From Calditrichota bacterium (GTDB lineage: Bacteria; Electryoneota; AABM5-125-24; Hatepunaeales; Hatepunaeaceae), in contig VGIQ01000002.1 of NCBI GenBank assembly GCA_016867835.1, forward strand, positions 2,953 to 66,952: a stretch of DNA of 64,000 bases, written 5' to 3'. The notes beneath the pieces were generated by a model. The model was not told where the DNA came from and made no database searches. It saw only the letters and a list, made by a program, of their open reading frames with translations. Numbering within the stretch: the stretch's first letter is position 1; each line of letters opens with the position of its first letter. Made by a program: the position numbers and the translations under genes. Shown one piece after another: positions 4,140 through 64,000 of the stretch.

Positions 4140-5465
4140 TCACCGGCGAAGAGAGCGTCTTACCAGCAGCCAATCTTCTCGTCGAGCGACCAGAACATCG
4201 CGCGCCGTAACTCCCGATTCTCGCAGGAAGAAATAGAGGAACATACTCCCGGTAAGAAAATGCGTTCCTGTCGATGCCAGGGCGGCGCCCATTATACCGA
4301 GTCGCGGAATTAGGATTAGTCCGGCAGCGACATTCAGAACAAATGTAATGACCGAGACAATGACCGAATAATGAGGTTTCCCCCGACCGATCAGATCCCC
4401 GGCGAGCATCGTGGCAAGTGTCAGGACAACCGCGCCGGGAACAAGCACTGCCAGCGGCTTGTATGCCGGTATGAATGCCGGGCCAAAGAGAAGGTATATC
4501 AAAGGGTAGCCGAATATCACCAAGGCGCATCCGGCAAGCAAGGTCAAAGCAAAGCCAATGCGCACCAGGAGAGGAGTCATTTGGTTGCCGGCATCGTCGC
4601 TCCGCTGCGCCACATACGGCAGAAGCACCTGTCCTATCGCCGCTGGAAGATAACGAAGACCGACCAGAATCGCCGCAGCCAGCGAATAATAGCCCACCTC
4701 AGAGCGGGACATAAAGAACGCGATGATAAACAGGTCGAAGCGCGATCGCAGGAATGAAAGGACATTGCTCAAATGAAACGATATCCCGAAACGCAGCATA
4801 GCGAGCAGAGATGGAATATCAAGGCGAAGTCCGCCGACCTCCCGGATGGAATTGGTGAGCAATAAAATACCGGCCGTCAGAATCGCCAGTCCCCAAAGCG
4901 CGATTGCAGTTTCAACAGAGGCCCCGCCGGCAATCCAAACCAAGGCCATGGTGGACACAAAGATCATTTCCCGCGAGACCATAATGAGATTCATCTTGAA
5001 AATGCGGTCGAAGCCTATCAGCATACTGTTTCCGTATTCGAGCAGCAACAGCGGGAGAACAGTCACCGTCGCCATCATCAGCAACCGGTCGGATACGAGA
5101 GGTATGAACCGGTCCCGCACCGTCGGCATAAAAAGCATCGCCAGCGCCGTCCATAAAAAGCCCCATAGCACCGTAAAAAAAAGACTATTACCGGCTACCG
5201 AAGAGCGATTCACGGGCTGCCGTCCGATGAAGTAACTGCATGCCGATCCATAGGATAAATGCCCGATATTGGCAAGGGACATAGCTACCAGCATGGTCAG
5301 CGAGAGCAGTCCCTTGCCGTCCGGACCGAGGGCTCGAGCGATGACGATCTGCCCGACCAACCCGACGGCAAAGGTCCCGAATTGCCCCCCCAGAGCGCTG
5401 ATCAGTTTACTACGCAGTCTGTTGGTGGCAATTCCCGACGCTCTTTCGACTGGTGAGTCCGTCAA
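4140..5465 (-). CDS. Polysaccharide biosynthesis protein / Wzx-like flippase (MOP superfamily).
   Basis: 441 aa with ~12 predicted hydrophobic helices. The N-terminal SKLISALGGQFGTFAVGLVGQIVIARALGPDGKG is typical of PST-family flippases. It is adjacent to the Wzy-like and Wzz-like genes. Confidence 0.6.
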   Translation of the reverse strand: MTDSPVERASGIATNRLRSKLISALGGQFGTFAVGLVGQIVIARALGPDGKGLLSLTMLVAMSLANIGHLSYGSACSYFIGRQPVNRSSVAGNSLFFTVLWGFLWTALAMLFMPTVRDRFIPLVSDRLLMMATVTVLPLLLLEYGNSMLIGFDRIFKMNLIMVSREMIFVSTMALVWIAGGASVETAIALWGLAILTAGILLLTNSIREVGGLRLDIPSLLAMLRFGISFHLSNVLSFLRSRFDLFIIAFFMSRSEVGYYSLAAAILVGLRYLPAAIGQVLLPYVAQRSDDAGNQMTPLLVRIGFALTLLAGCALVIFGYPLIYLLFGPAFIPAYKPLAVLVPGAVVLTLATMLAGDLIGRGKPHYSVIVSVITFVLNVAAGLILIPRLGIMGAALASTGTHFLTGSMFLYFFLRESGVTARDVLVARREDWLLVRRSLRR

Positions 5466-50867: not shown

Positions 50868-51005
50868 CATGTGAATGGATTGAGAGGCCGTTGTGGGCAG
50901 GCGGGTAAGCATTCCTTATCCGGCTTTAAGCATGCCACCAGACGCCTTCGACTGGTGGCTAACGGATATTGGCTAAAGTGGGGCGAAGGCGTCCCCTTGA
51001 CACTG

Positions 51006-51481
51006 AATTGGTCGGATCGGAATCCGACCCTACGCGACAAATTGGTCGGATCGGAATCCGACCCTACGCGACAAATTGGTCGGATCGGAATCCGACCCTA
51101 CGCGACGAATTGGTCGGATCGGAATCCGACCCTACGCGACGAATTGGTCGGATCGGAATCCGACCCTACGCGACGAATTGGTCGGATCGGAATCCGACCC
51201 TACGCGATGAATTGGTCGGATCGGAATCCGACCCTACGCGACGAATTGGTCGGATCGGAATCCGACCCTATGCGACAAATTGGTCGGATCGGAATCCGAC
51301 CCTACGCGACGAATTGGTCGGATCGGAATCCGACCCTACGCGACGAATTGGTCGGATCGGAATCCGACCCTACGCGACAAATTGGTCGGATCGGAATCCG
51401 ACCCTACGCGACAAATTGGTCGGATCGGAATCCGACCCTACGCGACGAATTGGTCGGATCGGAATCCGACCCTACGCGAAA
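51006..51481. repeat. Tandem array of 14 near-identical 34-bp units, each containing a perfect 8-bp-stem hairpin.
   Basis: The unit AATTGGTCGGATCGGAATCCGACCCTACGCGAC(A/G) repeats head-to-tail with no spacers. Unit starts are 51006, 51040, ... 51448, and only 3-4 variable positions occur over 476 bp. The internal inverted repeat is GGTCGGAT-cgga-ATCCGACC. The period is not a multiple of 3, so the track ORFs 50871.., 50969..51493 and 51280..51756 across it show a 34-aa pseudo-repeat and are artefacts. A 10-bp inverted repeat GACGCCTTCG...CGAAGGCGTC lies immediately upstream at 50941-50993. Confidence 0.9.
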
Positions 51482-51494
51482 AGACACATTTGAA

Positions 51495-52853
51495 ATGGAA
51501 TCTATGCGCATGCCAATTCTCATCCTGCTTTCCCTGCTCCTCGCCGGCGCCGCCGTCGCCCACTTCGGCGCGAAGTTCGAGCCACCGGACGGACGCATCT
51601 ATCACGGCTCGGGCTGGAACTACATCGACAGCCATCGACGCTACGAGGAGATGTTCCCCGGCGACAAACGTCCGCTCATCCTGCAGACCAACGTCTCGAT
51701 TCCCGGCACCCGCGGCACCGACGTCGCTCGACTGGTGCGGGGTATGGAACAGATGATCATCCACCCCGACAGTCAGTTCGTCGAATTCAGCATGCACTGG
51801 CAGGGCCGCGACGCGGCGGTGATGCTCGACTCGATCTACGTCCATACCGACCAGTGGGATCGCTATGTCGATACCCTCGAAATCGCCTTTCGGCGGGTCA
51901 ATCGCCCCTTTTTCCTTCGCCTCGGATTCGAGTTCAACGGGGATTGGAATCCCTATCATCCTTACATCTTTCCCCAGGCTTTTCGCAAACTGGTGATCGA
52001 ACTTCGCCGCCGCGGGATCGACCAGTTCGCGACGGTCTGGTGCTACGAACCGGACGCTCCGGGCGATTTTGCAGACTCAACGCGGCAGGGCTGGAAGTGG
52101 TATCCGGGGGACGATGTCGTCGATTGGTTTGGCCTTGATCTCTTCAACCATGCGCACTTCGATCCCGCCGAGCCCGATTCGCAGCGCGGGCAACTCTCAC
52201 GCAAGGGCAAGAGCGAAGCATTCCTCAGGTTCGCCGAAACGCGGGGCAAGCCGGTCTTTCTGAACGAACTCTCGGCCATCGATATTCAGGCTACGCCCGA
52301 CTCGCTCGACGAAGATCACGCCGACGGGCGTGCCGACTGGGAGGTCTGGTTCGAACCGTTCTTCGATTTCGTCGCTGCACATCCGATCATTAAGGGCTGG
52401 AACTACATCAACGTCGATTGGAACGTCGTCGGTGACTACGGCGAGATGGGCTGGCGCGACGCGAGGCTCGAGATCAATACCTATATTCGCGAGCGTTGGG
52501 TGGCGCAGGTGTCAGGGGACCGGTTCATTCACGCCGGATGGGATATCACCCAAGACCTCGGCGTCCGGGATGGCAGGGCGCCGCTGCCTCGCTTGATGTC
52601 GTTTGAGGCCTGGCCCAATCCCTTCAACGCTCAAATGCGCATCGCGTTCGACCTACCGCATTCGGGGATCGTCAGACTTATGCTGTTCGATCCGTCCGGG
52701 CGCGAGGCAGGGACACTCCTTGGCAGCCGGTGGCTCTCTGCCGGCCGGAATGGACTCACTCTTGATGGTGGTGCGCTGCCGGCAGGCTCCTATATGCTCC
52801 GGCTCGACGCGGGAGGATGGCAGGCTGAGCGGAAGGTGGTAATGATAAAGTGA
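51495..52853 (+). CDS. Secreted glycoside hydrolase (GH26-like) with a T9SS C-terminal domain.
   Basis: The ATG at 51495 (alternatives 51504/51510) gives the MESMRMPILILLSLLLAGAAVA signal peptide. FLRLGFEFNGDWNPY resembles the GH26 RxxHExNGxW acid/base motif. WYPGDDVVDWFGLDLF resembles the GH26 nucleophile region. The CTD is AWPNPFNAQMRIAFDLPHSGIVRLMLFDPSGREAG...GSYMLRLDAGGWQAERKVVMIK. Confidence 0.5.
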   Translation: MESMRMPILILLSLLLAGAAVAHFGAKFEPPDGRIYHGSGWNYIDSHRRYEEMFPGDKRPLILQTNVSIPGTRGTDVARLVRGMEQMIIHPDSQFVEFSMHWQGRDAAVMLDSIYVHTDQWDRYVDTLEIAFRRVNRPFFLRLGFEFNGDWNPYHPYIFPQAFRKLVIELRRRGIDQFATVWCYEPDAPGDFADSTRQGWKWYPGDDVVDWFGLDLFNHAHFDPAEPDSQRGQLSRKGKSEAFLRFAETRGKPVFLNELSAIDIQATPDSLDEDHADGRADWEVWFEPFFDFVAAHPIIKGWNYINVDWNVVGDYGEMGWRDARLEINTYIRERWVAQVSGDRFIHAGWDITQDLGVRDGRAPLPRLMSFEAWPNPFNAQMRIAFDLPHSGIVRLMLFDPSGREAGTLLGSRWLSAGRNGLTLDGGALPAGSYMLRLDAGGWQAERKVVMIK

Positions 52854-55261: not shown

Positions 55262-57706
55262 TCAGCGCATCAAAACGGCCTTTACGGTGCGGGAATGGGA
55301 GCCGGTTTGAAGGCGGAGGAAAAAGATGCCGGAGGGAAGTGTGAAAGTGCTAAAGTGCGAAAGTGCGAAAGTATGGCTCCCGGGGGATAGCGGGCCGTCG
55401 TGGAGGCGGAGGATTTCCCGGCCGTCTATCGCGTAGAGGCCGATCCGGACGGGCATGAGACCCCCCACCTGCGCTCTTGGAGGGCGGACATTCTTGTCCG
55501 CCCTTAGGGCAGGCAAAAATGCCTGCCCTCCAAGATCAACTGTCACCGTCGCCTTATCGTTAAACGGATTAGGAGCAATCGTAAGCGAGAGTGGCGCGTC
55601 ATCCCCGCTTCCCCCCTCGTCATCCCCGCTTCCCGCCTCGTCATCCCCGCGCAAGCGGGGATCCAGTCCAGCACTTAGAGAATGGACATAGACAACCCAA
55701 ACTTGCACATCCTCCTCCCATTCTTCCTCGCCGACCTGCTCCCGCGCATACCCACTTACTATGTATCTGCCCGTGTCTTGAAATGAAATGGACAAAGTGG
55801 ACTCGATGGACATAGTGTCGGCTTCATTCAGCGTCCACCAGAACTGAATCGAGTCGTTGTTGGCATTGAAGGGAGTTAATTCGAAGGTCGTTTCCTGACG
55901 AGGCTCGAGGGAGATTTCAGCGAGATTCGGCTCATAAGCCCGAATGACTCCCCGCACCTGAATCGCCCATTGGACGGAATCGGCCGGCACGGGATCGACG
56001 TTCGGATCGAAGACCTTTGCTTTCAGAGCATAGCCACCCGTCCGGTCGAACGCGTAGGACCGGATTCCGATCCGGTCATCCCCTGCCACTTCCTCCCACC
56101 TCACCGCCGCTGAGTCGTAAATCATCCACTCATATCGCAGATTCTCCATATCTCCGATGTAGGCAATGGAGTCGAGGGCGAAGTCGATCTCGCTGTTGCG
56201 CTGAACGGTGAGGGATAGATGCTCAGGTGTGTACTCCACTATCAAAAGTTCCATAACAGCAACATTCCATCCAATGACGCGTGATTGCTCGCCGGAAGTA
56301 ACCCGGCACTCTATTCGTGTTTGTCCCAGTTCATCAAATTGAATGGTTGCTGATGAATCGCGATCGATCACCTGCCCAGCAGCATTCCGCCATAGATAGG
56401 ATATGGCCGCACCATTCTGGTTTCGCGCCTGCACAGCAAACGTCTGGCGCGTGCCAATCAACAGCGACAGCGTCGTATCGCGCGGTGACCATGAAATGAA
56501 CTGGGGGCCAATGACTTCGCGCTCTAATTTGATCAGCAGCCCGTTCTTGCCCTCGTTGTTGCGCTCAAAGGTGGCGGTGCCGGCACCATAGAGCGACCCA
56601 TCGCTGCCCTGAATGACCCCGCCGAAAGAATGTGACCGCCCTACCCCCTGTCCAAACCCGTTTTCGGGAAGCAGAAAGTATATTTCCTTCCAAAGTTCGT
56701 CGCCGTTGGGGCCGATACGGACTACTGCCGGGTGATGGGTGTCGCCTTGATCGCGCGGGAACCAGAAAAATCCCGCCAATATAAAGCCGCCTTCGGCTAC
56801 CCGTGCTGCCGCATTACATTGATCCATACCCCATAGTTGGCGATTGGCAAAACTGTAGCGGCGTCCCCACATTAGGTCGCCGTTGCTATCGACCAGAACC
56901 GCAGCCATATCTATTGGCTCCGGCTGTCCTCTATTATCGCCGGTAAAACCGGCGATCAGGAACTGGCCCTGGCCGGTGGAAGTCATGGTCATAGATAAGT
57001 TACTGACGTCAATCCGATAGGAATTCCACCAGATCACTTCGCCATTATCGGATCTTATTTTGAAGGCCAAGAACTGGTATCCGGGCACATTTTCAATAAG
57101 CACATCACCTCCGACAATCACTCCATCTTCGGCTTCTCGCAGGCCCACAAGATGATGTCGTGTTCCTAACGAATACTCCCGCTCCCAGATCAACTCTCCT
57201 TCACCATCGATACAAATGACCACGCCAAGATAATCGCCATTTTCAATACTGGTTATGAGAAACCGGCCATCCTTCAATTCAATTATTGCGGTTCCTCGTC
57301 CTCGACGAAATGTTCGAAACCAGATCTCCTCACCATCAGAATCTACCCGCATAACTGCAATACGATTACTGCGATCTCTATTTTCACCTATGCCAGCGCA
57401 GGCTAGGAAGTCGCCATTATCCGCCTCGATGACACTTGCCAAACTTCTCAAACCGCCCTCCGCCTCATATTGTCTATCCCATATAATTTGCCCATCATCG
57501 TCGAGTCTAAGCAATCGGCCGCAACGAACGCTGTTTCCATTGGTCGCATATCCGCTCATTATCAGACCATCGTTTGGCACAGAATAGACATCCAAAATGC
57601 CGTCATCTCCTCCCGAGTCATACATCCGCATCCATAAGGGATTTGGCTGACCAAAAGAGGCGAATGCCGTCAGGATTACAACGAATATTGAGGTATGGAC
57701 TTTCAT
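55262..57706 (-). CDS. Secreted SBBP-type beta-propeller plus Ig/PKD-like domain protein with a T9SS C-terminal domain carrying an internal insertion.
   Basis: The ATG at 57704-57706 gives the MKVHTSIFVVILTAFASFGQ signal peptide. The track ORF starts 120 nt upstream. Repeats of DG..(I/L)..GYT.......D..IW..Y type (DGLIMSGYATNGNS...DDDGQIIWDRQY; DGRFLITSIENGD...GEGELIWEREY; ...) form the propeller. Ig-like domains follow, then an acidic GSGDDE linker. The CTD APNPFNDKATVTVDL-[GGQAFLPALRADKNVRPPRAQVGGLMP]-VRIGLYAIDGREILRLHDG...GIFFLRLQTGSHSRTVKAVLMR contains a ~27-aa insertion relative to the other CTDs in this window. Confidence 0.65.
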   Translation of the reverse strand: MKVHTSIFVVILTAFASFGQPNPLWMRMYDSGGDDGILDVYSVPNDGLIMSGYATNGNSVRCGRLLRLDDDGQIIWDRQYEAEGGLRSLASVIEADNGDFLACAGIGENRDRSNRIAVMRVDSDGEEIWFRTFRRGRGTAIIELKDGRFLITSIENGDYLGVVICIDGEGELIWEREYSLGTRHHLVGLREAEDGVIVGGDVLIENVPGYQFLAFKIRSDNGEVIWWNSYRIDVSNLSMTMTSTGQGQFLIAGFTGDNRGQPEPIDMAAVLVDSNGDLMWGRRYSFANRQLWGMDQCNAAARVAEGGFILAGFFWFPRDQGDTHHPAVVRIGPNGDELWKEIYFLLPENGFGQGVGRSHSFGGVIQGSDGSLYGAGTATFERNNEGKNGLLIKLEREVIGPQFISWSPRDTTLSLLIGTRQTFAVQARNQNGAAISYLWRNAAGQVIDRDSSATIQFDELGQTRIECRVTSGEQSRVIGWNVAVMELLIVEYTPEHLSLTVQRNSEIDFALDSIAYIGDMENLRYEWMIYDSAAVRWEEVAGDDRIGIRSYAFDRTGGYALKAKVFDPNVDPVPADSVQWAIQVRGVIRAYEPNLAEISLEPRQETTFELTPFNANNDSIQFWWTLNEADTMSIESTLSISFQDTGRYIVSGYAREQVGEEEWEEDVQVWVVYVHSLSAGLDPRLRGDDEAGSGDDEGGSGDDAPLSLTIAPNPFNDKATVTVDLGGQAFLPALRADKNVRPPRAQVGGLMPVRIGLYAIDGREILRLHDGPLSPGSHTFALSHFSTFTLPSGIFFLRLQTGSHSRTVKAVLMR
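55474..55534. repeat. Compound palindromic (REP/MITE-like) element lying in frame inside the T9SS CTD coding sequence of 55262..57706.
   Basis: The outer stem is CTTGGAGGG...CCCTCCAAG (55476-55484 / 55525-55533). It encloses two hairpins: GGGCGGACA-ttct-TGTCCGCCC and AGGGCAGGCA-aaaa-TGCCTGCCCT. The GGGCAGG/CCTGCCC stem type also forms the terminator at 55128-55152. Confidence 0.55.
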
Positions 57707-57776
57707 GATGGTGATGTGCTTGATTGTGCAGTCGGGCGGGCGGGGGGCGCCCTTGGCTCCCCGCCCGCCTGTTTGC

Positions 57777-58199
57777 TTACTGACGTTCTTCGACTTTCCA
57801 GTCGAATGTCTGCGGATCCGTAGCATCGTAGGTCTGCAAATCGCCTTCTGGCTCGAAGCCGGTATAGAGACCGGAGGCGGTCAGCCGTACTTGCCAGCGG
57901 TACGAAACAGATTGGAAGTCAGCGTAGTAATCAGCCTCGATCTGAGTTGCATAGACCCAGTCGCCCCAAACACCTGGCGCGACTTCTATACGAAACTGGA
58001 CCGAGGCGTCATACTGGCCGACCCACTCTTCGTCAATTAACTCGAGAATTCGAGTCTGCAGCCGAACTGCCTGAGCATCGGATGGTGCTAGCAGTCCTAC
58101 AATAAGCAGAATTGCCGAAGCAATGAATGTGATGCGACGTAGTGTCACTGTGGAATCTCCGTTGATTGTCGTTGATGAGATTGCCTCGCCTGTCTGCAA
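57777..58199 (-). CDS. Small secreted protein of unknown function.
   Basis: 140 aa. The hydrophobic segment ITFIASAILLIVGLLAPSDAQA looks like a signal peptide. The start may be an internal GTG. I recognised no known domain. It lies 71 nt upstream of the SBBP propeller gene. Confidence 0.35.
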   Translation of the reverse strand: MQTGEAISSTTINGDSTVTLRRITFIASAILLIVGLLAPSDAQAVRLQTRILELIDEEWVGQYDASVQFRIEVAPGVWGDWVYATQIEADYYADFQSVSYRWQVRLTASGLYTGFEPEGDLQTYDATDPQTFDWKVEERQ

Positions 58200-58572
58200 C
58201 AGGCTCGCGATGACGTTGCGTCATCGCCGGATCAAACGACTACCTTACGGCGGAGCGCGGCTTCGCTGCCGTCTTAGGCGTGAGCGGCATCGCCCTCCCC
58301 CGAGTCAGGTGGAATGGGGAAGTCGAAGTTGTCGATGATGATGACGGGATCGGGATCCCGTCCAAAGCAGGGAAGGAAGAGCATCGGCGTCGGACTTAGG
58401 AATCTGCCTTAAGGAACAGTGATAGCGTCAGGTCTTAAGCAATCGTCGAAGTCCGCAAGCGGGCAGTGCAGGTCAGGATAAGATAAGCAGCAACGTGTCG
58501 ATTTGCAAGAAGATACGAGAGGAGGTTGACGTTGTTGGAGCCGGGCTAATTGGTGCGGTCGCTCCTTGCTCC

Positions 58573-59784
58573 TCAGCGCATCGCCACATCCTGCCCGCGC
58601 AAGGCCTCCATTCCAAACTGGAGCGCACTCAACAGGTGCCGTTCTTCCCGCTCGTCACCGCGCTTGCGAGCCTCGGCGATCATCGTCCGCAGACGTTCCA
58701 CAAAGAGGCCTTCGGCGGTGCGGGGATTGGGATCTGAGTTGTCGTCGAGCGAAAAGTCGGCGGTCACGGCGCTGTCGTCCACCCTCAAGTGCCAGCAAGC
58801 GCTCTGGAGAAAGTCGTCGGAGAGGTCGATCCGGCTGCCGGGGGGATAGCGACCTTCCAACTCGACGAGGCAGATGTCCTCGCGGCGGACATGGGCGTCC
58901 TGAAGCGACTTCTCAATTCGTTCCTGAACGGCTGCAGAATGGGCTGCGCCATCGAGCGATACCACAAGCCTAACGATGCGGCGGGTATCGAGTTCCCGGA
59001 AGCGAAGTTCGTCCGGCACAACGCCGCCCGGTCGAACGAGACCGACCAGGCAGCCGCGCTCGCCCGGCTCGTCGATGGTTAAGGCAGCGGCAGCCCCCGG
59101 ATAAGCCGCCCGCACCCGGCCTTGCGAGTCGTGGATGACGGAATGACTGTGATAATGCCCTAACGCAGCATAGTCGAAGTTGTGACGGAGAAGTTCCTCG
59201 TCGGAAAAGGGCAGCGTCCGCTTCTTGCCGGGAGGCAGGCTCCCGCCGTCGCGCGAGCCATGCAGAACCGCAATATGGAGCGCTCCATCGGGCCGGTCGA
59301 TGTTTTCGGCCAACCGACGGCTCTGCACCAACTGGTTGCTGTGAAACGCCAGGCCGCTGAAGACGACGCCCTGTAGTTCCGGAAACGTCCGGGGGGTGAA
59401 GTCGTAGTCGCGAAAAATGTGGATATTGTCCGGCCACCTGTGGCCGGTGCGCGCTTCGAGGAGGCTGTCGCTGTAGTAACTGGCGGGGTGATAATAGTCG
59501 TGATTGCCGGGCGCGATGACGACCGGCAGTCCGGCGCGGCCGAGATAATCGACGACGACCAGGGCTTCCTCCTGGCCGGAGCCTTCCTCCCAGAGGTCTC
59601 CGGCGATGAGGATTACCTGGACCGATTCCTCGCGCGCGATCTCGACCGTTCGCCGCAGAACCTCGCGCAGTTCACGGGCTCGCACCTGAGCCTTATCGTA
59701 AGGAAGGCGCAGGCGCCCGCCGACGGTGTCGGCGCCGAGGTGCAGATCGGCAAGGTGCAGGAATTTCAGGGAGTCAAGGGGCAT
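58573..59784 (-). CDS. SbcD/Mre11-family metallophosphoesterase nuclease (YhaO/SbcF-like).
   Basis: MPLDSLKFLHLADLHLG is calcineurin-like phosphoesterase motif I. ILIAGDLWE is motif II. VIAPGNHD is motif III. The phosphoesterase core is complete, including AVLHGS and LGHYH. Confidence 0.8.
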   Translation of the reverse strand: MPLDSLKFLHLADLHLGADTVGGRLRLPYDKAQVRARELREVLRRTVEIAREESVQVILIAGDLWEEGSGQEEALVVVDYLGRAGLPVVIAPGNHDYYHPASYYSDSLLEARTGHRWPDNIHIFRDYDFTPRTFPELQGVVFSGLAFHSNQLVQSRRLAENIDRPDGALHIAVLHGSRDGGSLPPGKKRTLPFSDEELLRHNFDYAALGHYHSHSVIHDSQGRVRAAYPGAAAALTIDEPGERGCLVGLVRPGGVVPDELRFRELDTRRIVRLVVSLDGAAHSAAVQERIEKSLQDAHVRREDICLVELEGRYPPGSRIDLSDDFLQSACWHLRVDDSAVTADFSLDDNSDPNPRTAEGLFVERLRTMIAEARKRGDEREERHLLSALQFGMEALRGQDVAMR

Positions 59785-59804
59785 AAGGGATGATTTACCG
59801 AAAG

Positions 59805-60560
59805 TTAGACTCCAAATACTTCAGAATAGAGCTGCTTTCGAGCTTGATCTTGTTCCAATTCGGCATAAATCTCGGTGATTTTTTCATAAGATAGAAAATT
59901 GACATTTGGACCAATGATGCGATACGCCTCCTTTCGTTTCTCAGATTCGAACTTTCTAAAACGATCTTGCGGTGCGACAACATTGAACTGAGTCCTAAAA
60001 TAGCGCAACTCGTCGAATTTGAGAAGAGCAGACCGAAAATCCGTTGAATGTTCGACTTCAAATATACTAATTGGATAAAGTATTGGAGGTGGATTCGAAC
60101 GAGCATCTTGGAACCAGATTACATCAAAAAATCGCGCCGACCTATCGATGATTTCATCATAAGTGAATCGAGGGCACTCGCGAACGGTGCATATATTAGC
60201 CAGTGATTTGCCATTGAATTTCTTAGACTTATCATTCGAGTATGTCTTGAACCCTTTAAACTCACCCAGTTCGAGGAGCATTCCCTGAATGTGAGTGTGT
60301 TGAAATTCCTTAAATGCAATTTGTTCGACTGGCACTGGCTCTGACACAAACGAATGCTTGGCAAGTGCATACACTCCTACTCCAATTCGCTTAAATCTTG
60401 GATCGCGCTGAACGCGCTCTTGTATAGTCTTATCTGGAGTTTTGCCTGTAAGCGAACGATATTTGAGGAATTCTTGATAGATTAATCGCAAAGATGCAAA
60501 TCCGCCATTTTCTAGCATCACTCGTTCAATGGCATCTGAGTAACTGATAGTGTTTTTCAC
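59805..60560 (-). CDS. Low-GC gene encoding an N-terminal HARE-HTH-like winged helix fused to a putative nuclease-like (PD-(D/E)xK-like?) domain.
   Basis: GTG start 2 nt after the SbcC-like stop, with a GGAGG RBS. SYSDAIERVMLENGGFASLRLIYQEFLKY...DPRFKRIGVGVYALAKH matches the HARE-HTH pattern ending F.R.G.G.Y.L. The C-terminal half has FDVIWFQD...ILYPISIFEVEHSTDFRSALLKF as a candidate catalytic beta-strand pair. Gene GC is ~42% versus ~65% in the flanks. Confidence 0.45.
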   Translation of the reverse strand: MKNTISYSDAIERVMLENGGFASLRLIYQEFLKYRSLTGKTPDKTIQERVQRDPRFKRIGVGVYALAKHSFVSEPVPVEQIAFKEFQHTHIQGMLLELGEFKGFKTYSNDKSKKFNGKSLANICTVRECPRFTYDEIIDRSARFFDVIWFQDARSNPPPILYPISIFEVEHSTDFRSALLKFDELRYFRTQFNVVAPQDRFRKFESEKRKEAYRIIGPNVNFLSYEKITEIYAELEQDQARKQLYSEVFGV

Positions 60561-60562
60561 GG

Positions 60563-63448
60563 TTACCCCTCCACCCCTTTGAGTTCGATCCTTCTCACCC
60601 GATCCTCAAACAGTCCGCCCATCTGTTCCCCCAGCCAGCGGTGACGCTCCTCGTGGCAGGACATCACCAGCACCTGATGCTGGCGCGAGAGTGAGTTGAG
60701 AAAGAAGCGCATTCCGGAGATGAACTTATCGTCATCGACCGCGGCGAGCGGCTCGTCGAGCACCACCGGCATCGGCCCGACCGCCGAACGGGAAAGGTAG
60801 CGGGCTATGCCGAGCCGGGCCGCAAGGAAGACCTCGTCGCGCGCCCCGGTTGAGAGGACGGCTTCGACCTCGTGAGATGAATGGCGCTTGCCGGTCGCCG
60901 TATCGAGGACCGTAAAGGTGAGATGCTCGTCGAATTTCAGTTCGCTGTAACGGGGGTTCAGCGCGACCAGAAAAGGCGCGGCCTCTTCCGACAGCGCCGT
61001 CGCCCAGTTTCGATAGACCTCGCGCGAGATATCCGATAGCACTTGCAGCGCGGTCTCGACGTCCGAACGAAAGGTCTCTATGCGCTCGATCCGGTCTTCC
61101 CAATCCGCTGCCTTGCGTTTAAGGATACCGTAATTCCCTTCGTAACGGTCGAGGACTGTGACCACTGCGCGTTCGAGCGATCGTCGCTCCTCTTCGAGAC
61201 TCTTGGTATGTCGGTTAGCATTATCGGCCGCTTCCTGATAGAACTCGCGCGAATGCGGCGGAACCGGCGGAACGTTGTCGAATTTGGCGCGGAGTTGCGA
61301 AAGACGCTCGCGTTTGGCAGCCAGATCGACCTCCGGAAGTTGTTCACGCTCGATACGAGGCTGCAGTTCGGTCCGGACGGTGCGCAGGCGGTGATGCTTG
61401 TCGAGTGCCGACTTAAACGTGGCGACGGCTTCGGCCGGCGGCAGGGATGGGTCGATACTGCCGAGGCGGAGGATTTCCTCAAAGAGCGCCCGATTCGCTG
61501 AGAGGTCCGATTTCAGCCGCTCGATGTCGCGCTCGATTTCGTCGCGTCGTGCTTTGGCGGTCTTGAATTCCTCCGACAGGCGAACCGCCTTGCGGTAGCG
61601 CTCGAGCAACGATTCGGCTGCCGCCTTGAGAGCGCTTCGTTCGGGAAAGGTGAGGCCGGCCCGGTCGAAGAACTTGCGCAGGAGATCGGCGGCGGCGGAT
61701 GCCTCACCGGAGGCGCGCTCGACAGCATTCTCAGCCGTCAACAGCGGTTCGACGGCATCGGACATCTGATCGTAGAACAGATAGTCGTTCATTAACCCGG
61801 TGCCGTCAGGCTCGCCCAGGCGAACGGCGAGGTCGGTCAGGTCGCGCGTTATCTGTTCGAGGCGGGATCCGGACTCCTCCTCTTCGGTCATCGCTTCGCC
61901 GAGGTCTTCGTTCAGTTTACGCAGGGCAGCAGCATCGGCGCCTCCGCCCGAAGCACCCCGGGCGATAGCGCCCGCCGCACCGAAGAAGACCCCTAGGCCG
62001 GCCAGAACCTGTCCGAGCCATTCGCCCTTGGTGAGCAGAATGAGTGCACCGCCCGTAAGGACGGTAATCGCTGCCAGCAGGAAGAACGTCCGGGCGGTCG
62101 CGGCGACGCGCTTCTGACGGGTAATGATAAGGCTTCGCTCGCGCTCGACCCACTCTCGCCGGGTGCGCTGTTCGCGAAACTTGCCGTCCACCTCGGCATA
62201 GAGAGCTCGAAAGGACTCGACGAAGCGCTTTTCGTCAGCAGTTAAACTACCGAATAGAGCCTTCAGCCGGGTGAACTGCTCGCGGTCGAGACCTCGTTCG
62301 TCGAGGCTTGACCGGAGGCGGTTCAATTCCCTATCGGCATCGTTCAACCGTTCGAGGCGGTCACCCAACCGCGAGACGGCGCTATCGAGTTCCCTTAGGT
62401 CGCTCTCGCCAACCCCGGCGAGCGTGCGTTCGTCCTGCAGCGCCTTCTCCACCTTCTCAAGCGGTGCGATGCCTTCGCTCGCGAGCCTCTCTTCGGCGCG
62501 GACGGCATCGGCGGATTTTTGAGCGATGAGACCTTCAAGGCTGATGAGTTGGTCGGCGCGGGCAGCCGGGAATTGCTCGAAAAGCGTTAACTCGCTCGCC
62601 TCGACGGCAAGCCGGGCCGCCTCGGCGGCGAGGGCATCCTGCTTTTCGAGGAGTAGCGACGATTCGCGAATCTCGGCCGCGTCGCCGTTTTTCAGAGCCT
62701 CGGTTTGCGTCTGCCGGAGCGTTTCAAGCGACGTCTCGATCTCGCGCATGCGGGCGATTTGCGGCTCTATGGACGCGCGCTGATGGTCCAGGGTGGCGAT
62801 TTCGCGGCGGACGCTGTCGAGTTCCTCTTGGAGCCGTTTGAGGGCAGTTTCAACCTTTACGGACGGGCTGTTGCGGGTGATGTCAGGAATGCGGTCGAGG
62901 GCGCCGCGAAGCCGTTCGATGGCCTGACCGGAAGTGGTGCCGCCTTCGATGGAGGTCGCGACCTGCTGGATGTGATGAGTCAGGTCGCCCGGCTCGGTTA
63001 GGGTAAGTTGCTCGTCCTGCCGGAGGTAGAACGATTTGAGAAACGACTCCACCGAGAGGCCGAGCAGTTTTTCGCCGATTTGGTAGCGTCCCTTGCCGAT
63101 GTGAAATTCGTCGGCGAGATCGCGGCCGGAATCGCGGTCGATAAGGCGAACATCACCGGAAGCGAAGTCGCGCTCGATGCGCCAACGCTGGGTGCCAAGA
63201 TAAAAGTCGAGTTCGACGCCGAACTCGTCGGGGTCAGTCCATGGTGTTACTTGACGCTTATGGGGACGTTTACTGCTCGTTTTCCCCATATGTTCCTCGA
63301 TGCCGTAGAAGGCGGCGAGGATTGCGGCGACAAGGGTGGACTTGCCGGCTTCGTTGTCAGCGACGGCGAGGTTGAGCCGGTCGGGGGCGAAGTCGATCCG
63401 GGTGCGCAGGCAGCCGAAGCCGCGGATGTTCAGGGATTCAAGGTGCAT
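60563..63448 (-). CDS. SbcC/Rad50-family AAA ATPase (YhaN/SbcE-like, 961 aa).
   Basis: MHLESLNIRGFGCLRT...AVADNEAGKSTLVAAILAAFYG carries Walker A. About 700 aa of coiled coil follow. The C-terminus has VVLDEPLAAVDDDKFISGMRFFLNSLSRQHQVLVMSCHEE with Walker B and the D-loop. Its length and architecture match Bacillus YhaN-type partners of Mre11-like YhaO. Confidence 0.8.
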   Translation of the reverse strand: MHLESLNIRGFGCLRTRIDFAPDRLNLAVADNEAGKSTLVAAILAAFYGIEEHMGKTSSKRPHKRQVTPWTDPDEFGVELDFYLGTQRWRIERDFASGDVRLIDRDSGRDLADEFHIGKGRYQIGEKLLGLSVESFLKSFYLRQDEQLTLTEPGDLTHHIQQVATSIEGGTTSGQAIERLRGALDRIPDITRNSPSVKVETALKRLQEELDSVRREIATLDHQRASIEPQIARMREIETSLETLRQTQTEALKNGDAAEIRESSLLLEKQDALAAEAARLAVEASELTLFEQFPAARADQLISLEGLIAQKSADAVRAEERLASEGIAPLEKVEKALQDERTLAGVGESDLRELDSAVSRLGDRLERLNDADRELNRLRSSLDERGLDREQFTRLKALFGSLTADEKRFVESFRALYAEVDGKFREQRTRREWVERERSLIITRQKRVAATARTFFLLAAITVLTGGALILLTKGEWLGQVLAGLGVFFGAAGAIARGASGGGADAAALRKLNEDLGEAMTEEEESGSRLEQITRDLTDLAVRLGEPDGTGLMNDYLFYDQMSDAVEPLLTAENAVERASGEASAAADLLRKFFDRAGLTFPERSALKAAAESLLERYRKAVRLSEEFKTAKARRDEIERDIERLKSDLSANRALFEEILRLGSIDPSLPPAEAVATFKSALDKHHRLRTVRTELQPRIEREQLPEVDLAAKRERLSQLRAKFDNVPPVPPHSREFYQEAADNANRHTKSLEEERRSLERAVVTVLDRYEGNYGILKRKAADWEDRIERIETFRSDVETALQVLSDISREVYRNWATALSEEAAPFLVALNPRYSELKFDEHLTFTVLDTATGKRHSSHEVEAVLSTGARDEVFLAARLGIARYLSRSAVGPMPVVLDEPLAAVDDDKFISGMRFFLNSLSRQHQVLVMSCHEERHRWLGEQMGGLFEDRVRRIELKGVEG

Positions 63449-63460
63449 TTAGGGCGGTGC

Positions 63461-64000
63461 CTATCGGGATAATGGCCAATTACCATAATCGCGCAGTTCA
63501 TCATCCGTGAGTTCATCAGGTGCGACTAACCTGTAGTGCTTCTCATCGGAAATAGCCGGACCGTCATCGTCCACTACAAAAGTGAACAGAGCAATTAAAT
63601 TACTCTCGATGAACTGAGCTGCGATAGCGCTACATATCAAACCTGGGTATTTTTGTTCGCAAAGGGCTATATCCTGCTCTATTTGAACAATACCCAGTTG
63701 GTCTGAGCCTCCTTTCGCTTGCACTGGGAAGACATAATGCGCCCCGCGCTTGTCAACCCCCACGTATATCTCGTCAGTCTCTACTTGTCCAATACCCTCG
63801 ACTGTGGTTCTGAGGTGGCTTTGAAGGGAGTAGCAAGCAACGCCTGTGAATACATCAATTAGCCTGTTATACCGTATCTTGGTAAGGAGAGCCTGTTCAT
63901 CACCTATCGAATACCTCGCTACTATTCCCGGAGTAGAGTCAGGAATCTTGGTTACCGCAAGTGATATATTCGGCGTAATTCTCGGGGCAGAGGTGAGCGC
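63461..64000 (-). CDS. C-terminal part of a low-GC gene of unknown function (possible nuclease-like fold). The N-terminus lies beyond the window.
   Basis: The minus-strand frame is open from the window end down to the stop at ~63461. It reads ...IPDSTPGIVARYSIGDEQALLTKIRYNRLIDVFTGVACYSLQSHLRTTVEGIGQVETDEIYVGVDKRGAHYVFPVQAKGG...GNWPLSR. The track lists only the internal 63461..63763 piece. GC is ~48%. I have no confident family assignment. Confidence 0.35.
   Translation of the reverse strand, partial: ALTSAPRITPNISLAVTKIPDSTPGIVARYSIGDEQALLTKIRYNRLIDVFTGVACYSLQSHLRTTVEGIGQVETDEIYVGVDKRGAHYVFPVQAKGGSDQLGIVQIEQDIALCEQKYPGLICSAIAAQFIESNLIALFTFVVDDDGPAISDEKHYRLVAPDELTDDELRDYGNWPLSR

Follow-up and report, generated by a model that had tools for sequence, protein, structure and literature searches.

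The segment from position 58,573 to 64,000 of the Calditrichota contig stretch analysed here (64,000 nucleotides, hereafter the window) carries the genes of an SMC/Rad50-type ATPase of 961 amino acids (aa) and of a calcineurin-type nuclease of the Mre11/SbcD family. They are separated by a gene of low G+C content (GC) encoding a 251-aa protein and preceded by a second low-GC open reading frame (ORF). We are fairly confident that the two large genes belong to a vertically inherited operon in which two foreign restriction-type inserts have settled at recurrently occupied junctions, without any partnership between the inserted genes and the repair pair. The anatomy of the locus, the folds of its products, its synteny, the foreignness of the inserts and the recurrence of insertion were all observed in the analysis. 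In the mechanism that we propose, two Band7 (SPFH) genes and the SbcE- and SbcF-like genes would form an inherited Calditrichota operon for a membrane-anchored Rad50/SbcC-family ATPase and an Mre11/SbcD-family nuclease. A type II methyltransferase-endonuclease pair (insert 1) would have landed between the second Band7 gene (Band7b) and the ATPase gene, and an almost ORF-only solitary endonuclease (insert 2) between the ATPase and nuclease genes. The winged helix of the insert-2 protein would bind DNA and its NmeDI_C-type PD-(D/E)xK domain would cleave it. Both inserts would ride on the transcription of the operon and would act as restriction or defence genes on their own account.

The four ORFs listed in a first-pass annotation of the window were recovered at the same coordinates, all of them on the minus strand. 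The low-GC frame upstream (64000-63461) is open and runs off the window edge. A public contig (L001; loci are designated by L and a number) is 100% identical to window positions 58490-64000 and adds 3.8 kb past the window end. Its genes are, in transcription order, Band7, Band7, a 442-aa methyltransferase, a 267-aa endonuclease, the ATPase, the 251-aa gene and the Mre11-like gene. The insert-2 gene begins 2 bp past the ATPase stop codon and ends 20 bp ahead of the Mre11-like start, with both flanking genes intact, and the sequence GGAGGGG that precedes its start codon is located within the end of the ATPase gene. The occupied arrangement was identical in contigs of three independent sequencing runs and in a metagenome-assembled genome (MAG), and no empty-site allele was detected among contigs encoding the identical Mre11-like protein.

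The SbcE/SbcF-like pair and its operon

The classification of the two large genes in the first-pass annotation, as an SMC/Rad50-type ATPase and a calcineurin-type Mre11/SbcD nuclease, was confirmed by motifs and by Pfam and NCBIfam matches. The ATPase contains a Walker A motif (NEAGKST, aa 32-38), a signature motif (LSTGA, 865), a Walker B motif (VVLDE, 895) and an H-loop (CHEERH, 931-936), and these head motifs were invariant across 24 homologues. Pfam matches were to AAA_23 (9.6e-12), AAA_27, the YhaN-type head (2.4e-6), and SbcC_Walker_B (4.9e-4). The NCBIfam Rad50 model was matched at 1.6e-13, but with a score of 49.6 this match was far below the cut-off of 700. There were 36 full-length homologues with 36-58% identity, all of about 960 aa and from Calditrichota-type genomes. 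Two adjacent hydrophobic helices occupy the middle of the protein (aa 448-496) in 24/24 aligned family members, with no CxxC motif, and the same helix pair without CxxC was found in Bacillota and Armatimonadota homologues. The window ATPase lacks a CxxC zinc hook, cysteines being present only at positions 13 and 931. The nuclease matched Pfam Metallophos (3.7e-14) and the NCBIfam sbcd subfamily (7.8e-14), whereas its score with the NCBIfam SbcD equivalog (52.1) was below the cut-off of 77.65. Its five calcineurin-type phosphoesterase motifs are intact (DLHLG at 13, GDL at 62, GNHD at 93, LHG at 174 and GHYH at 209).

The central domain of Bacillus subtilis SbcE (YhaN) is unique and hydrophobic, and the protein lacks a CxxC zinc hook (PMC2811018). 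Its gene adjoins that of the SbcD-like SbcF (YhaO), with a role in double-strand-break repair and competence in B. subtilis (PMC2811018, Krishnamurthy et al., 2010). Since the hydrophobic central hairpin and the absence of CxxC match B. subtilis SbcE, the high-GC pair is classified as SbcE/SbcF (YhaN/YhaO)-like and not as canonical SbcCD. By homology with the B. subtilis proteins, the Calditrichota pair may process double-strand breaks.

The synteny of these genes in relatives was studied by scanning one genome per species, which yielded 30 loci that were mapped by tblastn. The order Band7a-Band7b-ATPase-Mre11 was conserved in Calditrichota. The ATPase and nuclease genes were directly adjacent, with no insert between them, in 10 Calditrichota loci, where the nuclease orthologues were 39-51% identical; this bears on the question, raised in the first-pass annotation, of whether both genes are normally neighbours. 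The gap between them was 2-215 bp in L011-L015 and L017-L020, and 3 bp in L043. In Armatimonadota and Bacillota loci the nuclease gene comes first and the ATPase gene second. The ATPase-first order, which had been noted as the reverse of the canonical one, is therefore reversed with respect to these two phyla but, being conserved in Calditrichota, it is a lineage trait of the phylum and not a local rearrangement.

Two paralogous Band7/SPFH (HflK/HflC-like) membrane-protein genes of high GC were located at L001 346-2183, and such genes lie immediately upstream of the ATPase gene in most Calditrichota loci. The pair was also found upstream of the ATPase gene in L011, L013, L015 and L017-L021. 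A functional link between the SPFH proteins and the Rad50-like ATPase is possible.

Foreign origin of the two inserts

The GC of the two large genes was about 0.62-0.64, that of the insert-2 gene 0.41 and that of the upstream frame about 0.48. A scan of the 64-kb window identified the insert-2 gene as its lowest-GC stretch, 4.7 standard deviations under the mean. The G+C content at third codon positions (GC3) was 0.45 for the methyltransferase, 0.45 for the 267-aa endonuclease and 0.37 for the 251-aa gene, against 0.73-0.79 for the four native genes. The 30 loci from genomes of relatives yielded no homologue of any of the three inserted genes, and both inserts were absent from 13 related Calditrichota loci.

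The distribution of short palindromes gave a further indication. The sequence AGCT is nearly purged from the host, with 11 sites in 67.8 kb (the window plus the L001 extension) and an observed/expected ratio of 0.06. The inserts, which comprise 2.95 kb, hold seven of these 11 sites, that is, 2.37 per kb compared with 0.06 per kb elsewhere, a 38-fold excess. Within the window, AGCT is at 5283, 17826, 49021, 59830, 59841, 62204 and 63617. A similar distribution between inserts and host was observed for CTAG. Site avoidance implies a long-term restriction pressure on the lineage and, as AGCT is concentrated in the inserts, they have not gone through the long-term site purge of the host. Both inserts are foreign. 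They represent separate events, because their GC differs and the native ATPase gene lies between them. The proposal of two independent low-GC insertions at a hotspot was thus borne out by their absence from the 13 relatives, by their alien GC3 and AGCT content and by the presence of other cargo at the same junctions (see below). The other sites avoided in the same 67.8 kb, with their observed/expected ratios, were CTAG (0.11), GTAC (0.21), GTCGAC (0.09) and CATG (0.47).

Promoter and terminator signals in the inserts did not exceed the shuffled background in a scan of sigma-70 type, which may not apply to this phylum. Given the gaps of 2-36 bp and the lack of internal promoter or terminator signals, it is suggested that the inserts are co-transcribed with the operon.

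Recurrent insertion at two junctions

Other cargo was found at the same two junctions in related genomes. Two Caldithrix genomes (L009 and L010) each carry about 3 kb between the ATPase and Mre11-like genes. One of these cargoes comprises MNT/HEPN genes, a protein sorted by the type IX secretion system (T9SS) and a VapC-type PIN toxin; the other comprises UPF0150, DUF4258, an MqsA-like ORF, a T9SS-sorted protein and an IS200-like transposase. In a further relative, the ATPase gene is directly followed by that of a Ser/Thr-kinase/AAA_16/TPR (kinase-STAND) protein, and at the Band7b/ATPase junction of one relative an AbiU2 abortive-infection gene was detected. Including the window, 4/14 ATPase/Mre11 and 2/9 Band7b/ATPase junctions were occupied, each by a different cargo, in what is a small sample of MAGs. 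These data support the view that defence, toxin-antitoxin and mobile genes have settled repeatedly at the two junctions within the phylum. The T9SS-sorted secreted proteins of Caldithrix (L009 10621-12042 and L010 10782-12314) have 473 and 510 aa, and a protein of similar class is also encoded just downstream of the window operon.

Insert 1, a type II restriction-modification pair

The 267-aa endonuclease matched the REBASE-derived PADLOC model REase_II PDLC03404 over its full length (6.2e-114, positions 1-258/260), and the fragment contained in the window matched the same model (8.7e-81). The rest of its gene and that of the 442-aa methyltransferase lie beyond the window, at L001 2219-4343; both genes have a GC of about 0.47 and overlap by 8 bp. 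The methyltransferase matched Pfam N6_N4_Mtase (9e-14) and PADLOC MTase_II PDLC03224 (8e-41) and contains the motifs FCGTG (at 65) and SPPY (at 257). In methyltransferases, the SPPY motif points to N4-cytosine methylation, so this enzyme is probably of the N4-cytosine type. Relatives of the endonuclease, with 53% identity, were found on mobilizable enterobacterial plasmids of 4-6 kb, whose PLSDB annotation was too sparse for naming the restriction-modification type, and a PDB sequence search with the endonuclease gave no match. The upstream low-GC ORF, described in the first-pass annotation simply as nuclease-like, is thus real but more than that: its profile matches identify it as the predicted endonuclease of an ordinary, complete type II pair with the methyltransferase just outside the window.

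Insert 2, a predicted winged-helix/NmeDI_C nuclease

The 251-aa protein is identical to a hypothetical protein from a Calditrichaeota MAG. Its AlphaFold model has a mean predicted local distance difference test (pLDDT) value of 91. The N-terminus of the model is a winged helix of about 80 aa, whose matches include the RNA polymerase delta HARE-HTH domain, and the C-terminus has a restriction-endonuclease fold (match scores: AF1548, 8.4; NgoMIV, 8.3; BspD6I, 7.9; BamHI, 6.7). A HARE-HTH domain plus a nuclease-like part had been proposed for this gene, and both stood. Residues E97, D146, E168, E170 and K181 are invariant and lie on the expected structural elements. From this we infer that E97, D146, E168 and E170 may form a BamHI-like E...D...ExE acidic active site, and the solitary 251-aa nuclease is presumed to be active.

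The Pfam family NmeDI_C (PF27126) is precomputed for this protein and for all of its listed homologues, and local Pfam, NCBIfam and PHROGs scans gave no match. PADLOC PDLC03534 aligned at 5e-5 with model positions 177-325/351 only. With hhalign, homology to a 421-aa protein annotated as a type II endonuclease had a probability of 98%, over the last ~145 residues only. A PDB sequence search with the family profile retrieved nothing. R.NmeDI is a type II endonuclease of Neisseria meningitidis, of 351 aa, that cuts on both sides of RCCGGY (PMC2095814). The 251-aa protein consists of the NmeDI cleavage module together with a different and small DNA-binding module.

As many as 489 homologues of about 240 aa and 45-54% identity were found in many phyla, their hosts including Planctomycetes, Acidobacteria, Anaerolineae, Neisseriaceae, Bacteroidia, Thioglobus and others. 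The GC of the family gene was below that of its flanks in 6/6 of the first loci inspected, with a mean deficit of 0.05 over 78 loci. A phage origin was considered and dropped, as no relatives of the family were found in phage genomes, IMG/VR or BFVD.

In five unrelated genomes, a solitary family gene is flanked by housekeeping genes on the same strand, and no methyltransferase was found up to 6 kb away. The impression from these five loci that the family is always solitary was overturned by a survey of 80 metagenome loci, in which methyltransferase neighbours were counted at the 45 loci whose flanks extended for 1 kb or more in both directions (well-flanked loci). An intact adjacent methyltransferase was present in 10/45, fragments only in 19/45 and none in 16/45; among loci with at least 3 kb of flank, 12/24 were without any methyltransferase. 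About 10 loci have a gene for a 258-aa methyltransferase (PADLOC PDLC03351, 2e-91) that shares 8 bp with the start of the nuclease gene; a D12-class methyltransferase is often present downstream of these pairs. In many of the loci L045-L124, the nuclease is intact and the upstream PDLC03351-type methyltransferase is cut to its first 60-120 residues or its N-terminal domain. Since the same methyltransferase family recurs next to the nuclease, the ancestral state is indicated to be a type II pair, and the complete PDLC03351-type gene next door in 10/45 loci marks the family as restriction-type. That the nuclease outlives a truncated methyltransferase is the opposite of the usual decay order of type II systems. 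Other loci of the L045-L124 series contain conserved, tightly coupled small ORFs of ~85-110 aa, of no known family, on either side of the nuclease gene. Around family loci, remnants of genes for D12 methyltransferases and IceA-like endonucleases are frequent.

Evaluation of alternative explanations

Several observations weigh against the reading of two foreign inserts that act on their own account in an inherited operon. The insert borders showed no target duplications, terminal repeats or border-spanning direct or inverted repeats, and neither integrase nor tRNA genes were found at the inserts. Co-transcription was deduced from gene spacing and the sigma-70/terminator scan, and the recurrence of insertion from few junctions of MAGs. 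In addition, the tight and precise same-strand packing within an operon for DNA-break repair could reflect selection for co-expression. Finally, no homologue of the PDLC03351-type or D12-type methyltransferases was found within the 64-kb window, the nearest methyltransferase being the one encoded three genes upstream of the 251-aa gene and paired with another endonuclease. As there is no cognate methyltransferase in the window, the tolerance of the host to an apparently intact endonuclease calls for an explanation. Protection in trans, modification dependence or inactivity of the nuclease could account for it. A nuclease directed to the host-purged AGCT was also considered as an explanation and rejected, since two AGCT sites lie within the gene and others persist in the genome.

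Protection in trans would make the 251-aa protein an orphaned type II endonuclease, the restriction half of a PDLC03351-type unit that came, or persisted, without its methyltransferase and whose sites are methylated by another enzyme, which could be the 442-aa one three genes upstream or one encoded elsewhere in the genome. We regard this refinement of the preferred reading as a serious possibility, albeit one with odds below even. The usual methyltransferase family or its fragments stand beside the nuclease in 29/45 well-flanked loci from several lineages, the catalytic residues are invariant in the solitary copies, and the window has a DNA methyltransferase 3.7 kb upstream in the same transcription direction. 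However, this methyltransferase matches the usual partner of the family in the motif I region only (31-42% over ~50 aa) and its gene overlaps that of its own endonuclease; moreover, the truncation of the partner next to an intact nuclease in 19/45 loci runs counter to the decay expected of a type II system.

Modification dependence would mean that the protein is a stand-alone, type IV-like endonuclease whose winged helix reads a modified base, such as N6-methyladenine (m6A), as in DpnI, and which attacks modified invading DNA. The winged helix plus nuclease architecture, the lack of an intact adjacent methyltransferase in 35/45 well-flanked loci (and of any in the 12/24 with longer flanks) and the solitary copies amid housekeeping genes in five unrelated genomes are in favour of it, and, were methylation harmful, neighbouring methyltransferases would tend to be truncated. 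A stand-alone gene has been defined as one whose three nearest genes in each direction do not include a DNA methyltransferase, and several winged-helix fusions selected in this way proved to be m6A-dependent (PMC11037411); for the window gene, the third gene upstream is a methyltransferase. Nevertheless, in four or more independent lineages the nuclease has retained a neighbouring methyltransferase that is intact and translationally coupled, which fits a methylation-sensitive enzyme. The domain order is also opposite to that of DpnI, and winged-helix domains such as that of FokI are not methyl-specific. For these reasons a type IV-like activity appears rather unlikely.

Inactivity, or the spread of a homing-type nuclease into intergenic sites, would be expected of a selfish or decaying element. 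The ORF-only inserts in L006, L040 and the window, with 0-25 bp to their neighbours, would fit this, as would the consistently AT-rich gene with its patchy occurrence across phyla and the flanks often made of gene fragments. But the insertion sites have no sequence in common, the flanks of solitary copies in six genomes showing no common motif, and phages and viral contigs, which are rich in homing genes, gave no relatives of the family. Furthermore, the reading frame is uninterrupted, the active-site residues of its product are invariant and the fold is predicted with confidence, and the identical arrangement recurs in the three sequencing runs and the MAG. We consider such an element improbable.

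The first-pass annotation had offered, as an alternative to a hotspot, a composite system in which the Rad50/Mre11-like pair works with an acquired DNA-binding effector. The nuclease could, for example, make breaks for the pair to process or be the effector in a defence system of SMC type, Lamassu being one. This proposal was not supported by the survey: the nuclease was found in 0/13 related ATPase loci, and neighbours homologous to the Rad50- or Mre11-like proteins of the window in 0/85 loci of the 251-aa family. The gene does fit exactly into the operon and shares its strand, with gaps of 2 and 20 bp and intact neighbours, and the ATPase matches PADLOC LmuB (2.3e-20), but this match reflects generic SMC/coiled-coil similarity in the coiled-coil/C-terminal part only, and PADLOC gave no LmuA or LmuC matches among the neighbouring proteins. 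Solitary family members also occur near DNA-metabolism genes (nth, recN, holB and xerD/dNK/recO), although these cases are anecdotal and each is different. Considering as well that the pair is vertically inherited with housekeeping-like synteny and that unrelated cargo occupies the same junction in other genomes, a composite system is the most remote of the explanations weighed here. Only slightly less remote, and still very unlikely, is an autonomous nuclease that stays active after methyltransferase loss, being modification-dependent or self-limiting, and whose ORF-only placement in DNA-metabolism operons is selected. If this were true, a break-maker would be placed under the control of the break-processing machinery, giving an ad hoc restriction-plus-processing module.

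Locus layout and other features of the window

The coordinates of the features of the locus are listed below.

Table 1. Features of the SbcE/SbcF-like locus and its inserts (window coordinates).
Feature	Position	Strand	Remarks
SbcF/YhaO-like Mre11/SbcD-family phosphoesterase, 403 aa	58573..59784	-	GC 0.635, GC3 0.745, native
Spacer of 20 bp from insert-2 stop to Mre11-like start (downstream border of insert 2)	59785..59804	.	
Insert 2, predicted winged-helix + PD-(D/E)xK (NmeDI_C) restriction-type nuclease, 251 aa, 756 bp	59805..60560	-	GTG start
SbcE/YhaN-like SMC/Rad50-family ATPase, 961 aa	60563..63448	-	GC 0.62, native
Codons of the central hydrophobic hairpin (ATPase aa 448-496), coiled-coil apex	61961..62107	-	
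Insert 1, part within the window: 3' 540 bp, C-terminal 179 aa of the predicted 267-aa type II endonuclease	63461..64000	-	

The contigs from the three independent runs (L001, L002 and L128) end alike at ~58490, 83 bp past the Mre11-like stop codon, which suggests that the DNA immediately past the operon is repeated or differs between strains. The MAG continues there with a gene of lower GC for a T9SS-sorted protein at 55262-57826, with a GC dip to 0.46-0.47 at 56801-57700. A tandem array at 51005-51479 consists of 14 copies of the 34-bp unit GAATTGGTCGGATCGGAATCCGACCCTACGCGAC, with 97% matches. The unit contains a short hairpin (GTCGGAT/ATCCGAC), and the array is located within the 5' part of a mechanically called ORF (50871-52853). 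As it is devoid of spacers, it is not CRISPR (clustered regularly interspaced short palindromic repeats)-like.

Significance and comparison with known systems

These data document SbcE/SbcF-type, membrane-anchored Rad50/Mre11 relatives outside Gram-positive bacteria, as a Band7-linked operon of Calditrichota whose intergenic junctions are small landing pads for defence and toxin-antitoxin genes. The ~240-aa winged-helix/NmeDI_C nucleases are an uncharacterised and widely transferred family, and their odd decay order makes them a reasonable target for restriction enzymologists. Current understanding is not overturned, as restriction genes at variable hotspots are commonplace.

The occupied junctions resemble defence islands and hotspots in that the cargo which they hold within a conserved gene cluster varies between genomes. 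Unlike these, the junctions are inside an operon and not beside a tRNA gene or an integrase site, and the inserts are small (0.8-3 kb) and without recognisable mobility genes or repeats. The likeness to Lamassu (LmuA/LmuB/LmuC) is limited to an LmuB-like match, with no counterparts of LmuA and LmuC.

The 251-aa protein shares with R.NmeDI a homologous C-terminal nuclease domain of ~145 aa, and both are modular, with a recognition part followed by a C-terminal cleavage domain. They differ in that R.NmeDI has a larger and unlike N-terminal part in the place of the 80-aa winged helix, and in that the NmeDI gene overlaps its own methyltransferase gene whereas the window gene has none adjacent. The winged-helix fusion enzymes (DpnI, FcyTI, HhiV4I and others; PMC11037411) and the Mrr-type type IV enzymes likewise combine a winged helix with a restriction-type nuclease and, as in the fusion enzymes, most members of the 251-aa family are without an intact neighbouring methyltransferase. 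In contrast with the fusion enzymes, ~22% of the well-flanked loci of the family keep an intact, coupled methyltransferase; and in the window protein the winged helix precedes the PD-(D/E)xK domain, the reverse of DpnI.

Canonical SbcCD/Rad50-Mre11 complexes have a CxxC zinc hook at the coiled-coil apex, which the window ATPase does not have. With SbcE/SbcF, the pair shares a ~960-aa SMC/Rad50-type ATPase with long coiled coils and a hydrophobic centre without CxxC, and a nearby gene for an Mre11/SbcD-like calcineurin-fold nuclease, here parted from the ATPase gene by an insert of 778 bp. The differences are the gene order, which in Calditrichota is ATPase then nuclease, after two Band7/SPFH genes, and in Bacillota nuclease then ATPase, and the identity of just 25-33% between the window ATPase and its Bacillota homologues, confined to the two ends. 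Each component of the locus falls into an established class, namely those of SbcEF-like operons, type II restriction-modification pairs and modular restriction-type nucleases at defence hotspots.

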